NCBI RefSeq assembly: GCF_016903815.1
Contig: NZ_CP069973.1
Origin: Escherichia coli
GTDB lineage: Bacteria; Pseudomonadota; Gammaproteobacteria; Enterobacterales; Enterobacteriaceae
DNA: 64,000 nt
Reading direction: 5' to 3' (one strand)
Part shown: one piece after another, positions 451 to 56,535 of the stretch
Numbering within the stretch: the stretch's first letter is position 1
How the letters are laid out: each line of letters starts with the position of its first letter
The notes under the pieces: generated by a model
Database searches by the model: none
The model's input: only the letters and a program-made list of their open reading frames with translations
Told to the model about the DNA's origin: nothing
Program-made: the position numbers and the translations under genes

Positions 451-607
451 TATTCACCTCAATAAGTAAAATGTAAGCCGTTGGCGGATTAGGCATCTTT
501 AAGCGTAACCTGGATTTGCGCAGACAGGCGTCAATCCGACCTGATTTTTTGAATGATAAAATAAGTTTTCTGGTTTAGCCAGTAAAAGGGAGTGATGATA
601 ACGATAT

Positions 608-3643: not shown

Positions 3644-5308
3644 ATGAGTGAGGCAGAAGCCCGCCCGACTAACTTTATTCGTCAGATCATCGATGAAGAT
3701 CTGGCCAGTGGTAAGCACACCACAGTACACACCCGTTTCCCGCCGGAGCCGAATGGCTATCTGCATATTGGCCATGCGAAATCTATCTGCCTGAACTTCG
3801 GGATCGCCCAGGACTATAAAGGCCAGTGCAACCTGCGTTTCGACGACACTAACCCGGTAAAAGAAGATATCGAGTATGTTGAGTCGATCAAAAACGACGT
3901 AGAGTGGTTAGGTTTTCACTGGTCTGGTAACGTCCGTTACTCCTCCGATTATTTTGATCAGCTCCACGCCTATGCGATCGAACTGATCAATAAAGGCCTG
4001 GCGTACGTTGATGAACTGACACCGGAACAGATCCGCGAATACCGCGGCACCCTGACGCAGCCGGGTAAAAACAGCCCGTACCGCGACCGCAGCGTTGAAG
4101 AGAACCTGGCGCTGTTCGAAAAAATGCGTACCGGTGGTTTTGAAGAAGGTAAAGCCTGCCTGCGTGCGAAAATCGACATGGCGTCGCCATTTATCGTAAT
4201 GCGCGATCCGGTGCTGTACCGCATTAAATTTGCTGAACACCACCAGACTGGCAACAAGTGGTGCATCTACCCGATGTACGACTTCACCCATTGCATCAGC
4301 GATGCGCTGGAAGGTATTACGCACTCTCTGTGTACGCTTGAGTTCCAGGACAACCGTCGCCTGTACGACTGGGTGCTGGACAACATCACCATTCCTGTTC
4401 ACCCGCGCCAGTACGAATTCTCGCGCCTGAATCTGGAATACACTGTGATGTCCAAGCGTAAGCTGAACCTGCTGGTGACCGACAAGCACGTTGAAGGCTG
4501 GGATGACCCGCGTATGCCGACCATTTCCGGTCTGCGTCGTCGTGGTTACACTGCGGCTTCTATTCGTGAGTTCTGCAAACGCATCGGTGTGACCAAGCAG
4601 GACAACACCATTGAGATGGCGTCACTGGAATCCTGCATCCGTGAAGATCTCAACGAAAATGCGCCGCGCGCAATGGCGGTTATCGATCCGGTGAAACTGG
4701 TTATCGAAAACTACCATGGCGAAGGCGAAATGGTCACCATGCCGAACCATCCGAACAAACCGGAAATGGGGAGCCGTCAGGTGCCGTTTAGCGGTGAGAT
4801 TTGGATCGATCGCGCCGATTTCCGCGAAGAAGCTAACAAGCAGTACAAACGTCTGGTGCTGGGTAAAGAAGTGCGTCTGCGTAATGCTTACGTCATTAAG
4901 GCTGAACGCGTGGAGAAAGATGCCGAAGGCAATATCACCACCATCTTCTGTACTTATGACGCCGACACCTTAAGCAAAGATCCGGCAGATGGTCGTAAAG
5001 TCAAAGGTGTTATTCACTGGGTGAGCGCGGCACATGCGCTGCCGGTTGAAATCCGCCTGTACGATCGTCTGTTCAGCGTGCCGAACCCAGGTGCTGCGGA
5101 TGATTTCCTGTCGGTGATTAACCCGGAATCGCTGGTGATCAAACAGGGCTTTGCTGAACCGTCTCTGAAAGACGCGGTTGCGGGTAAAGCATTCCAGTTT
5201 GAACGTGAAGGTTATTTCTGCCTCGACAGCCGCCATTCCACTGCCGAAAAACCGGTATTTAACCGCACCGTAGGGCTGCGTGATACCTGGGCGAAAGTAG
5301 GCGAGTAG
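3644..5308 (+). CDS. glnS: glutaminyl-tRNA synthetase
   Basis: 554 aa; class I HIGH motif (LHIGHAKS) and VMSKR (KMSKS-type) motif present in the translation. Confidence 0.95.
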
Positions 5309-5324
5309 TTTTAAGTTCTACCAG

Positions 5325-5357
5325 GCCGGGTGAGGTATTCACGCCGCATCCGGCAAG
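5325..5357. repeat. REP (repetitive extragenic palindrome) element
   Basis: tcacgccgcatccggca is the reverse complement of the GCCGGATGCGGCGTGA REP core. Confidence 0.6.
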
Positions 5358-5374
5358 AAATATGCAAACAATCC

Positions 5375-5403
5375 AAAACGCCGCGTTCAGCGGCGTTTTT
5401 TCT
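5375..5403 (+). terminator. Rho-independent terminator downstream of glnS
   Basis: Hairpin aacgccgcgttcagcggcgtt followed by a T-run. Confidence 0.7.
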
Positions 5404-5755
5404 GCTTTTCTTCGCGAATTAATTCTGCTTCGCAATTTATCCATAAAATAAATTTAAAATCACAAAACATAATTAAATAAAATGTAACCGCTTTCATCTT
5501 GCTGGAAATTCACGCTTTTATTCTTCTGCAAGCCTTTCAACCGCAAACTTAAGCCTTGTAACAAAAATCATCAAAATATGTGCGGTTGCTCATGTTCTTA
5601 CATTCTGGTTACAGAAAGAGATTGATAATTCGCGTCGCGAAAAATAGTCTGTTCCTGTAGTCAGCGAGACTTTTCTCAACGCTACTTTTTTAATTTTTAT
5701 TTTTTTCGCTGTTCACCTTTGGTGCAGCAATTTATACGTCAAAGAGGATTAACCC

Positions 5756-7162
5756 ATGCGTACGTTTAGTGGCAAACGTAGTACGCTGGCGCTGGCTATC
5801 GCCGGTGTTACAGCAATGTCGGGCTTTATGGCAATGCCGGAGGCTCGCGCCGAAGGATTTATCGACGATTCAACCTTAACCGGCGGTATCTATTACTGGC
5901 AGCGTGAACGCGACCGTAAAGATGTTACCGACGGCGACAAATACAAAACCAACCTTTCTCACTCCACCTGGAACGCCAACCTCGATTTTCAGTCTGGTTA
6001 TGCTGCTGATATGTTCGGCCTTGATATTGCTGCGTTTACGGCGATTGAAATGGCGGAAAACGGTGACAGCTCTCACCCGAACGAAATCGCGTTTTCAAAA
6101 AGCAATAAAGCCTATGACGAAGACTGGTCCGGCGACAAAAGCGGTATAAGCCTGTATAAAGCAGCGGCCAAATTTAAATACGGTCCGGTGTGGGCGAGGG
6201 CAGGTTACATTCAGCCAACTGGTCAGACGCTGTTAGCGCCGCACTGGAGCTTTATGCCGGGTACTTATCAGGGGGCGGAAGCCGGGGCGAATTTTGATTA
6301 CGGCGATGCTGGTGCGTTGAGTTTCTCCTACATGTGGACCAACGAATACAAAGCACCGTGGCATCTGGAAATGGATGAGTTTTATCAGAACGATAAAACC
6401 ACCAAAGTTGATTATCTTCACTCCATCGGTGCGAAATACGACTTCAAAAATAACTTCGTACTGGAAGCGGCATTTGGTCAGGCGGAAGGGTATATCGATC
6501 AATATTTTGCCAAAGCCAGCTACAAATTTGATATCGCCGGTAGCCCGTTAACCACCAGTTACCAGTTCTATGGTACGCGCGATAAAGTTGACGATCGCAG
6601 CGTCAACGATCTTTATGACGGCACCGCCTGGCTGCAAGCGTTGACCTTTGGTTACCGGGCGGCTGACGTAGTGGATTTGCGCCTCGAAGGCACCTGGGTT
6701 AAGGCTGACGGTCAGCAGGGATACTTCCTGCAACGTATGACTCCAACCTACGCTTCCTCCAACGGCCGCCTGGATATCTGGTGGGATAACCGTTCCGACT
6801 TCAACGCTAACGGCGAAAAAGCGGTCTTCTTCGGTGCGATGTATGACCTGAAAAACTGGAATCTTCCAGGCTTCGCCATCGGCGCTTCCTACGTTTACGC
6901 ATGGGATGCTAAACCCGCTACCTGGCAGAGCAATCCGGATGCGTACTACGACAAGAACCGGACTATTGAAGAGTCTGCATATAGCCTGGATGCGGTTTAC
7001 ACCATTCAGGACGGCCGCGCCAAAGGCACGATGTTCAAACTGCACTTCACCGAATACGACAACCACTCCGACATCCCAAGCTGGGGCGGTGGTTACGGCA
7101 ACATCTTCCAGGATGAGCGTGACGTGAAATTTATGGTAATCGCACCATTCACCATCTTCTGA
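5756..7162 (+). CDS. chiP: chitoporin (OprD-family outer membrane porin) ChiP/YbfM
   Basis: 468 aa with signal peptide and C-terminal aromatic residue typical of a beta-barrel porin; SD agagga upstream; recognised as ChiP. Confidence 0.9.
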
Positions 7163-7211: not shown

Positions 7212-7538
7212 ATGAAAAAACTGATTCTCATCGCCATGATGGCATCGGGGCTGGTGGCTTGTGCGCAATCAACCGCGCCACAGGAAGACAGCCGTCTGAA
7301 AGAGGCATACAGCGCCTGTATCAACACCGCACAAGGTTCGCCAGAAAAAATTGAAGCCTGCCAGAGCGTGTTAAACGTGCTGAAGAAAGAGAAACAACAT
7401 CAGCAGTTTGCCGACCAGGAAAGTGTACGCGTACTGGATTATCAGCAGTGTCTGCGCGCAACGCAAACCGGAAATGATCAGGCGGTAAAAGCCGACTGTG
7501 ATAAGGTCTGGCAGGAAATTCGCAGTAATAACAAATAA
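7212..7538 (+). CDS. chiQ: lipoprotein ChiQ/YbfN
   Basis: 108 aa with lipobox (LVAC); immediately downstream of chiP as in E. coli. Confidence 0.85.
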   Translation: MKKLILIAMMASGLVACAQSTAPQEDSRLKEAYSACINTAQGSPEKIEACQSVLNVLKKEKQHQQFADQESVRVLDYQQCLRATQTGNDQAVKADCDKVWQEIRSNNK

Positions 7539-7577
7539 GTGAGAGCTGTAACTCTCGCTTTTCTTATTTCCCGTGTA

Positions 7578-7610
7578 TAAAAAAGCCAACCCGCAGGTTG
7601 GCTTTTCTCG
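7578..7610. terminator. bidirectional Rho-independent terminator between chiQ and fur
   Basis: Hairpin agccaacccgcaggttggct flanked by an A-run and a T-run. Confidence 0.7.
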
Positions 7611-16605: not shown

Positions 16606-16799
16606 TTACCTTTACCTCTTGCTGTGTCAGTTGAAGGTAGAGTTATTCTATCCATGAAATGGCTATAATCTGTGAAGAAGATCAACAAAAAACGATCATA
16701 CCCCAGATAATAAATCATTAATTATGAATATTGCCATATTAGATGCTGTTTTGTTACTTAAATGTTGTAATTTTGTGTTTTATATTTGCGTTAAGAAAT

Positions 16800-16836
16800 T
16801 AAACCTGCCAAATAATAATATTTGGAGCAGGTTTAA
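16800..16836 (-). terminator. imperfect hairpin downstream of kdpE
   Basis: aaacctgcc...ggagcaggttt inverted repeat in an AT-rich spacer. Confidence 0.35.
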
Positions 16837-55368: not shown

Positions 55369-56535
55369 ATGAACTTACATGAATATCAGGCAAAACAACT
55401 TTTTGCCCGCTATGGCTTACCAGCACCGGTGGGTTATGCCTGTACTACTCCGCGCGAAGCAGAAGAAGCCGCTTCAAAAATCGGTGCCGGTCCGTGGGTA
55501 GTGAAATGTCAGGTTCACGCTGGTGGCCGCGGTAAAGCGGGCGGTGTGAAAGTTGTAAACAGCAAAGAAGACATCCGTGCTTTTGCAGAAAACTGGCTGG
55601 GCAAGCGTCTGGTAACGTATCAAACAGATGCCAATGGCCAACCGGTTAACCAGATTCTGGTTGAAGCAGCGACCGATATCGCTAAAGAGCTGTATCTCGG
55701 TGCCGTTGTTGACCGTAGTTCCCGTCGTGTGGTCTTTATGGCCTCCACCGAAGGCGGCGTGGAAATCGAAAAAGTGGCGGAAGAAACTCCGCACCTGATC
55801 CATAAAGTTGCGCTTGATCCGCTGACTGGCCCGATGCCGTATCAGGGACGCGAGCTGGCGTTCAAACTGGGTCTGGAAGGTAAACTGGTTCAGCAGTTCA
55901 CCAAAATCTTCATGGGCCTGGCGACCATTTTCCTGGAGCGCGACCTGGCGCTGATCGAAATCAACCCACTGGTCATCACCAAACAGGGCGATCTGATTTG
56001 CCTCGACGGCAAACTGGGCGCTGATGGCAACGCACTGTTCCGCCAGCCTGATCTGCGCGAAATGCGTGACCAGTCGCAGGAAGATCCGCGTGAAGCACAG
56101 GCTGCACAGTGGGAACTGAACTACGTTGCGCTGGACGGTAACATCGGTTGTATGGTTAACGGCGCAGGTCTGGCGATGGGTACGATGGACATCGTTAAAC
56201 TGCACGGCGGCGAACCAGCTAACTTCCTGGACGTTGGCGGCGGCGCAACCAAAGAACGTGTAACCGAAGCGTTCAAAATCATCCTCTCTGACGACAAAGT
56301 GAAAGCCGTTCTGGTTAACATCTTCGGCGGTATCGTTCGTTGCGACCTGATCGCTGACGGTATCATCGGCGCGGTAGCGGAAGTGGGTGTTAACGTACCG
56401 GTCGTGGTACGTCTGGAAGGTAACAACGCCGAACTCGGCGCGAAGAAACTGGCTGACAGCGGCCTGAATATTATTGCAGCAAAAGGTCTGACGGATGCAG
56501 CTCAGCAGGTTGTTGCCGCAGTGGAGGGGAAATAA
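55369..56535 (+). CDS. sucC: succinyl-CoA synthetase beta subunit
   Basis: 388 aa [18 protein letters not shown]... Confidence 0.95.

Follow-up and report, generated by a model that had tools for sequence, protein, structure and literature searches.

The glnS–chiP Locus

The DNA considered here, called the window throughout, is a stretch of 64,000 nucleotides of Escherichia coli (RefSeq assembly GCF_016903815.1, contig NZ_CP069973.1). It contains glnS at positions 3644–5308 (TIGR00440, 1067 bits) and chiP at 5756–7162, the latter recognised by the chitoporin ChiP equivalog model NF047822 with 852 bits at a cut-off of 750. The chiP orthologue stands directly 3' of an AT-rich interval (5404–5755), in agreement with the RefSeq annotation of strains identical over 5250–5800, and is followed by an ORF of 108 amino acids (7212–7538) which has the size of chiQ; chiQ is annotated at the matching position of K-12. 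The upstream limit of the interval is a terminator-like hairpin with a T-run on the plus strand (5375–5409), which the terminator scan identified as the intrinsic terminator of glnS and which consists of a stem at 5375–5399, the loop GTTCA and the T-run. Both arms of the stem are about 90% conserved across 70 species and the loop is variable. A weak naRNA4/REP-like Rfam match was observed at 5324–5402, outside the interval and below threshold, and the Rfam scan of the region returned no family at threshold.

The interval measures 352 bp and has a GC content of 0.344, compared to 0.517 across the window, which bears out the initial description of some 350 bp of AT-rich sequence with A/T tracts between the glnS terminator and chiP. 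A/T tracts of at least five nucleotides are located at 5563–5567, 5640–5644, 5686–5691, 5694–5698 and 5700–5706, and the T runs of at least five cluster at 5686–5706. The interval belongs to the most AT-rich 1.7% of all 352-nt segments of the window; about five further loci in the 64 kb are equally AT-rich, so that it is marked rather than unique. Of 5426 complete E. coli genomes, all but two (5424) contain the segment 5250–5800. Compared to K-12 MG1655, the interval carries three substitutions and one extra T (about 99% identity); the substitutions all lie upstream of the chiP promoter, and the extra T belongs to the U-tract of the leader (T7 instead of T6).

The sequence-only reading, made from the letters of this DNA, had recognised neither an ORF nor an RNA gene in the interval. 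The first part stands for the plus strand, on which no ORF of at least 30 amino acids lies wholly inside 5404–5755, but the second does not, since the RefSeq annotation of K-12 contains the ncRNA gene chiZ (b4808) as the sole annotated feature of the glnS–chiP gap. The AT-rich gap is the known and well-studied cis-regulatory region of chiPQ, which is real but ordinary.

For the comparison between species, a protein-based search provided 80 chiP loci of Enterobacteriaceae with 83–100% protein identity. In 70 of these glnS is found directly upstream of chiP, with a gap of 385–565 bp and, in one case, of 1266 bp, and the column conservation profile was built on these 70 intergenic regions. In the approximately 70 loci a strong constraint acts on the promoter/operator and on the pairing site for the small RNA ChiX, and the spacer upstream of them is kept in composition, not in sequence.

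Promoter, Proximal NagC Operator and Candidate Distal Operator

The transcription start site of K-12 chiP, which is the 5' end of chiZ (708236), corresponds to position 5657 of the window. The DNA at 5404–5656 is, consequently, untranscribed promoter/operator DNA, and the leader, taken at first to be some 350 nt long, is reduced to 99 nt. Working back from the mapped K-12 start, the core promoter can be placed at 5622–5650 on the plus strand, with TTGATA (5622–5627) as the probable −35 hexamer, a 17-bp spacer and TAGTCT (5645–5650) as the probable −10 hexamer. The segment 5620–5650 is about 99% conserved across 70 species. A generic consensus promoter scan did not call the chiP promoter, because the −10 hexamer matches the consensus at only three of its six positions.

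The −35 hexamer, the spacer and the −10 hexamer are all overlapped by the proximal NagC operator GATAATTCGCGTCGCGAAAAATA (5624–5646), which is letter for letter the operator listed as 'ybfM proximal' in Table 1 of PMC3098098. Its leave-one-out PSSM score of 22.0 is the second in the 64 kb, behind the nagE operator at 637–659, and the sequence is retained exactly in 61 of the 80 species loci. The presence of this 23-bp operator across the deduced core promoter agrees with the membership of chiP in the NagC regulon. PMC4098024 describes chiP as repressed by NagC with reference to Plumbridge 2014, and a chiP::rho fusion was found to be adequately expressed only once nagC had been inactivated (2026 preprint, bioRxiv 10.64898/2026.05.02.722398).

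A candidate for a distal NagC operator of chiP is TCTGCTTTTCTTCGCGAATTAAT at 5401–5423, with a PSSM score of 9.4. Its right half GCGAATTAAT (5414–5423) is conserved, and its left half, which overlaps the T-run of the terminator, is degenerate in Escherichia. In other genera the homologous site is a good palindrome, the highest score being that of TTATTTTCGCGATGCGAATTAAT at 17.6, and this homology suggests that 5401–5423 represents the distal operator. Two other AT-rich positions, 5449–5471 (13.0) and 5419–5441 (11.1), outscore the candidate; they were rejected as the homologous distal operator since only 5414–5423 is conserved and aligned with the strong operators found elsewhere.

The spacing between the distal and the proximal operator is 223 bp in the window. 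Across 61 loci the operator–operator spacings fall into the classes 210–214, 221–226, 232–236, 245 and 253 bp, which are about one helical turn apart. The phasing gave a Rayleigh R of 0.63 near a period of 10.5 bp; the accompanying p value of about 0.007 is a naive one, uncorrected for shared ancestry. Such classes suggest, without proving it, that NagC molecules bound at the two sites could be brought together by looping of the DNA.

CRP-Like Site and AT-Rich Spacer

Between the two operators a CRP-like site, TGTGCGGTTGCTCATG, occurs at 5579–5594. Its centre (5586.5) is at −70.5 from the transcription start, a class I-type position. In the window 7 of 10 core positions match, and 62 of 69 loci reach 8 of 10. 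Conservation is about 95% in the TGTG and TCA elements, the stretch between them being variable, and 60 of 69 loci keep the same distance of 48.5 bp to the centre of the NagC operator. The gene ybfM is among the genomic-SELEX targets of cAMP-CRP, the position of the site not being given (PMC3105977), and it is from the conserved elements and the fixed geometry that we infer its exact place at chiP.

The remaining DNA between the candidate distal operator and the CRP-like site is an AT-rich spacer of 155 bp (5424–5578) with a GC content of 0.30 and a poorly conserved sequence. The comparison of spacers was made on the 61 species in which both of these sites could be located. Their spacers have GC contents of 0.26–0.46 (median 0.325), compared to 0.49–0.58 for the chiP coding sequences, and their lengths range from 94 to 185 bp. 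Two blocks inside the spacer are conserved to a different extent: the palindrome TGTAACCGCTTTCAT at 5483–5497, CRP-like or LacI/GalR-like, is patchily conserved, and a TTGTWACAA block at 5557–5566 is widely conserved.

It could be supposed that 5424–5578 is neutral intergenic filler of the non-coding composition usual in enterobacteria, and that the discrete sites alone matter. Column conservation of merely 0.2–0.4 over most of 5430–5480 and 5500–5555, the variable length of the spacer and the occurrence of several other equally AT-rich stretches in the window are all consistent with such an explanation. Nevertheless, neutrality would not lead one to expect operator spacings clustered in classes about 10.5 bp apart, a GC content of at most 0.46 in 61 of 61 species, or the two conserved blocks just described, and we therefore regard it as rather unlikely, though the most serious of the alternatives considered.

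A further gene hidden upstream of the chiP transcription start, whether for another sRNA or for a small protein, is very improbable. Three short minus-strand ORFs of 61, 36 and 34 amino acids overlap 5259–5564, and one promoter-like match occurs at 5454–5483; however, the ORFs lie where conservation is lowest and indels are frequent, a single promoter-like match is what chance would give (one found, 1.1 expected), Rfam contributes no family at threshold, and in K-12 RefSeq only chiZ is annotated there.

The composition of the interval could also be understood if the AT-rich DNA were chiefly a platform for H-NS/StpA filaments silencing chiP transcription. This is close to the original attribution of the AT-richness to silencing by nucleoid proteins. 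A GC content of 0.34 over 352 bp, falling to 0.30 in the 155-bp spacer, would suit these proteins, and an AT-richness that is kept in 61 species while the sequence is not would fit selection for composition-dependent binding. On the other hand, the tract is short, is embedded between core genes of about 52% GC, is all but universal in E. coli (5424 of 5426 genomes) and shows family-wide synteny, and is in these respects unlike the typical long, horizontally acquired targets of H-NS. The literature searched contained no link between H-NS and chiP/ybfM, and no match to the IHF consensus was found in 5404–5755. Moreover, transcriptional silencing is already accounted for by NagC, the documented repressor, whose known operator is exactly conserved on the promoter. 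Silencing by nucleoid proteins is therefore unsupported here, and an H-NS/StpA platform is considered improbable, although such proteins may bind to the spacer, whose AT-rich composition is conserved.

The Leader and the ChiZ RNA

The transcribed part of the interval (5657–5755, plus strand, 99 nt) is at the same time the 5' untranslated region of chiP and the equivalent of the K-12 sRNA gene chiZ. In K-12 RefSeq the ncRNA chiZ occupies 708236–708333 (98 nt) and ends just before the chiP ATG; all of these 98 nucleotides are identical in the window, which contains in addition the inserted T. The chiP RNA obtained in vitro starts at GUAGUCAGCGAGAC, the same bases as those from 5657 onward (PMC5606850). 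At the other end, a K-12 Term-seq 3' end flagged as 'sRNA' is given at 708334 in the supplement to PMC7815308, which corresponds to position 5756 of the window, the A of the ATG, and differs by 1 nt from the annotated 3' end of chiZ (708333).

ChiZ is a characterised sponge of ChiX derived from the 5' untranslated region (Adams et al. 2021, PMC7815308; its function is also described in PMC8043740). On northern blots it appears as an Hfq-dependent RNA of about 90 nt (PMC7815308). Its 3' end was ascribed by the authors to Rho-dependent termination, and its level was lower in the rho R66S strain at an OD600 of about 0.4 (PMC7815308). ChiZ accumulates without ChiX, and its overexpression raises chiP and lowers ChiX (PMC7815308). 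Rfam holds no model of ChiZ, and the PGAP annotation of a strain that matches the window exactly over 5250–5800 leaves the glnS–chiP gap empty; that chiZ was overlooked when only the sequence was read is for these reasons understandable.

In the minimum free energy (MFE) fold the leader forms two stem-loops separated by an open tract. Stem-loop 1 (5657–5685, plus strand) is placed at the 5' end of the transcript, and stem-loop 2 (5708–5728, plus strand) is made up of GCUGUUCACC, a UUU loop and GGUGCAGC. The U/A-rich tract UUUUUUAAUUUUUAUUUUUUU between them (5686–5706, plus strand) is unpaired, has a conservation of 0.73 and is likely a binding site for the rim of Hfq. This assignment is consistent with CLIP-seq data for Hfq in Salmonella, which show a peak and crosslink mutations at the UA-rich stretch of chiP (PMC5207318), and with the binding of this region to the Hfq rim reported in the literature.

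The folding energy of the leader is unexceptional compared to that of shuffled sequences (z −0.94), and no structure emerged from RNAalifold when 51 leaders were aligned with MAFFT by sequence only, as this left the stems of different genera out of register. When the Escherichia/Citrobacter/Salmonella clade was analysed, RNAalifold recovered both hairpins, with compensatory changes at 4 of 16 pairs. A covariance model derived from this clade was used to re-align 54 loci, and in the resulting alignment 93.4% of the cells were paired, with double changes at all 16 pairs. In 51 distinct sequences the helices of stem-loop 1 were 94.5% and 88.1% paired, with double changes at 9 of 9 pairs, and those of stem-loop 2 were 97.8% and 93.5% paired, with double changes at 7 of 7. 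The number of double-change cells was 127, compared to 30 ± 6 after shuffling (0 of 500 shuffles reached 127) and to at most 32 with slid partners; since the covariation was counted on a model-fitted alignment these figures lean toward structure, but the slid controls still fall far below the observed count. Therefore two hairpins, an open tract and an open Shine–Dalgarno (SD) region are the conserved layout of the chiP leader and of ChiZ.

The ChiX Pairing Site

The pairing site of ChiX, CGUCAAAGAGGA (CGTCAAAGAGGA), is located at 5737–5748 on the plus strand and includes the SD sequence AGAGGA (5743–5748), 7 nt before the ATG. It is a perfect 12-nt complement of ChiX nucleotides 45–56, has no second copy in the window and is the same in K-12, as the alignment of the two leaders showed; the identification of the chiP leader as a ChiX target, made at the outset from general knowledge of E. 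coli, was in this way confirmed. In the MFE fold of the leader the site is unpaired. It is exact in 50 of the 80 species loci, the 11-mer GTCAAAGAGGA being retained in most of the others, and its column conservation over the 70 intergenic regions is 0.93.

The ChiX sequence used was that of K-12 (507204–507287). The single-stranded part of ChiX (nucleotides 37–56) forms with the site a duplex of −19.9 kcal/mol (z of about −5.8), which is the best of approximately 25,000 tiles, tied with one other site that lies antisense within an ORF of 388 amino acids and is probably a chance match. The duplex scans were restricted to this seed, as 150-nt tiles scanned with full-length ChiX were uninformative (long inputs lead to long spurious duplexes), and in a scan that included the GC-rich terminator arm of ChiX several unrelated sites outscored the true one. 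The chiX gene is about 200 kb from chiP in K-12, outside the window; a single copy of it was counted in 5422 of the 5426 complete E. coli genomes.

Compensatory mutations made in both K-12 and Salmonella have proven that ChiX pairs with chiP (work cited in PMC7815308). The pairing prevents translation of chiP and uncovers a Rho terminator within its coding sequence (PMC12360218, Table 2). A bicyclomycin-sensitive site at K-12 708624 (Adams supplement, PMC7815308) is situated inside chiP, in line with a Rho terminator in the coding sequence. In Kosakonia the chiP site is CGTCCAGAAGGA and differs from the E. coli ChiX site. A metagenome scan for the co-evolved ChiX seed predicted for this genus (AATTCCTTCTGGACGGG; seed form TTCCTTCTGGACG) gave 74 matches, none of which was ChiX-like.

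Control at the DNA and RNA Levels

Taken as a whole, the interval is with high confidence the complete cis-regulatory region of chiPQ, acting at both the DNA and the RNA level. The DNA level combines the operator, the sequence identities and the conservation observed here with NagC repression as known from the literature; the hexamers, the position of the CRP site, the distal operator, the looping and the role of the spacer are our own deductions. The sigma-70 promoter, with its +1 at 5657, would be occluded by NagC bound to the high-affinity operator that extends from −35 to −10, and NagC would probably loop over some 223 bp to the weaker distal operator abutting the glnS terminator. The CRP site at −70.5 would fall inside this loop and could confer catabolite-dependent activation, and the AT-rich, sequence-variable spacer would serve as the loop DNA. 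Repression by NagC would be lifted by the entry of chitosugars into the cell. The specific inducer of NagC is GlcNAc-6-P.

At the RNA level the complementarity and the covariation were observed here, and ChiX pairing, Rho polarity, ChiZ sponging and the binding to the Hfq rim are taken from the literature. The 99-nt leader is expected to fold into two hairpins that leave the U/A tract free for the rim of Hfq and the SD region accessible. ChiX, made constitutively, would block translation by pairing with the 12 nt that cover the SD; this in turn would expose the Rho-dependent terminator inside chiP, so that chiQ would be silenced as well. Without ChiX pairing, transcripts ending at about the ATG would accumulate as ChiZ of approximately 90–99 nt, and ChiZ, which carries the same pairing site, would titrate ChiX and close a feed-forward loop of derepression.

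It is tempting to speculate that a NagC loop of about 210–245 bp, with a spacer kept for its bendability and for a length in whole helical turns, is a common property of these loci and, separately, that the two-hairpin leader and ChiZ are family-wide. We advance this reading tentatively, its chances being a little short of even, and part of it may already be contained in Plumbridge et al. 2014. If the two-hairpin leader and ChiZ are indeed family-wide, then the sponge loop of ChiZ would extend beyond E. coli. There are also Citrobacter strains with an ERIC insertion, in which the sponge may be disrupted.

Relation to Known Systems

The closest known system is the chiP (ybfM) leader of K-12 and Salmonella together with ChiX (also named MicM, SroB or RybC), with which the window shares the locus, the transcription start, the leader, the complement of ChiX and the U/A-rich Hfq site; nothing of substance differs, the changes being the one extra T and the three upstream substitutions. 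The regulatory region of chiPQ is already known, and the comparative details are small additions, some of which may already have been published. These modest additions are the covariation of the leader fold, the fixed CRP–NagC geometry and the spacing classes in helical turns, and they leave the understanding of the system unchanged. The locus is also useful as a calibration case for annotation from sequence only, in which promoter DNA and leader were merged into one, the sRNA gene chiZ, unreported by Rfam and PGAP, was missed, and the AT-richness was ascribed to nucleoid proteins instead of the documented specific silencer NagC.

The arrangement of the operators resembles that of nagE-nagBACD and chbBCARFG, which are repressed by NagC from two operators with a CAP site in between. 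At chiP the high-affinity 23-bp NagC operator lies on the promoter, a candidate NagC-like operator is placed farther upstream, and the intervening DNA holds the CRP-like site. The distal operator of chbB shares the right half CTTCGCGAATTA with the candidate distal site of chiP. The two nagE-nagB operators, present in the same window (543–565 and 637–659), are 94 bp apart, compared to about 223 bp at chiP, which is 129 bp more. Unlike in nagE-nagBACD and chbBCARFG, the candidate distal operator of chiP is degenerate in Escherichia, and looping at chiP is a proposal suggested by the spacing classes.

With respect to the RNA, the segment 5657–5755 is the same gene as ChiZ b4808 (PMC7815308), known here from its sequence, and carries the ChiX site to which ChiZ owes its sponge activity. 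Transcript fragments which bear the target site of an sRNA and titrate that sRNA are also represented by IspZ and by the ChiX trap of the chbBC intergenic region. ChiZ differs from the other sponges in being cut from the very mRNA that ChiX represses, which gives rise to an autoregulatory loop, and its 3' end is Rho-dependent, in contrast to that of IspZ, which results from intrinsic termination.

Variation within the chiP leader and the ChiX target

Inside the transcribed leader, which coincides with the ChiZ sRNA (5657-5755), the only difference between the window and K-12 is the length of the U-tract at 5700-5706, which is T7 in the window and in E. albertii (L006 of the compared Enterobacteriaceae chiP loci) and T6 in K-12.

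The chiP leader of several Citrobacter-type loci (L020 to L022) was found to carry a 125-nt insertion downstream of stem-loop 2 and ahead of the ChiX site, about 125 nt 5' of the chiP ATG. Both ERIC primer sites are recognisable in this insertion, with 17/20 and 18/21 positions matching; its predicted fold is a single long hairpin of -56 kcal/mol, and TTATAC is repeated at its flanks. The same insertion is probably present in L013, L024 and L026, as judged from model matches alone, which stop about 120 nt short of the ATG. Such an element would lengthen the leader and move the Hfq tract away from the ChiX site.

The ChiX target itself, which spans positions 19 to 8 nt ahead of the chiP start codon, is changed at three positions in Kosakonia and its relatives, and reads CGTCCAGAAGGA in L048, L057, L058 and L066 and CGTCTAGAAGGA in L049. 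The pairing of this Kosakonia-type target with an unchanged ChiX gives two mismatches and one G-U pair. A ChiX that had co-evolved with it would read TTCCTTCTGGACG, and a metagenome scan for this seed returned chance matches only.

The distal NagC-like operator and the AT-rich spacer

The distal NagC-like operator directly adjoins the T-run of the glnS terminator in E. coli and E. albertii (window 5396-5423), whereas in other genera an extra 20-60 bp separates the two elements and the left half-site is much better than in Escherichia. Taken together, the abutment and the poorer half-site suggest that the distal operator was degraded in Escherichia by a lineage-specific deletion.

Two conserved blocks occur within the spacer that follows (5424-5578). 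The short palindrome TTGTWACAA (window 5557-5566), with its centre at about -96, is conserved in nearly all genera. The second block, TGTAACCGCTTTCAT (window 5483-5497), shows patchy conservation, and Salmonella and Enterobacter lack it; the sequence agrees with the CRP-like pattern at 7/10 positions, and at 9/10 in Buttiauxella. It is also compatible with TGNAANCGNTTNCA, the LacI/GalR-type pattern.

Repeats behind glnS and further matches

REP/BIME-type repeats lie directly 3' of the glnS stop codon, and K-12 (L002, 2759-2950) contains about 131 bp more of them than the window does at 5309-5374, where a single REP-like unit is kept at about 5320-5358. A weak match to naRNA4 at 5324-5402 scored 28.6 bits, under the threshold. 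This strain-variable REP part probably lies behind much of the 90-99% identity spread observed among E. coli genomes.

On the minus strand of the window, CGTCAGAGAGGATGATTTTG (56274-56294) gave a ChiX-seed pairing of -20.0 kcal/mol, as good as that of the true chiP site. Since it is located antisense within a 388-aa plus-strand ORF (55369-56535), this pairing is probably a chance match. The NagC matrix gave further matches with CTTATTTCCCGTGTATAAAAAAG (7563-7585, score 15.1), just 3' of chiQ, and with TTATATTTGCGTTAAGAAATTAA at 16.8 kb (16780-16802, score 15.6).
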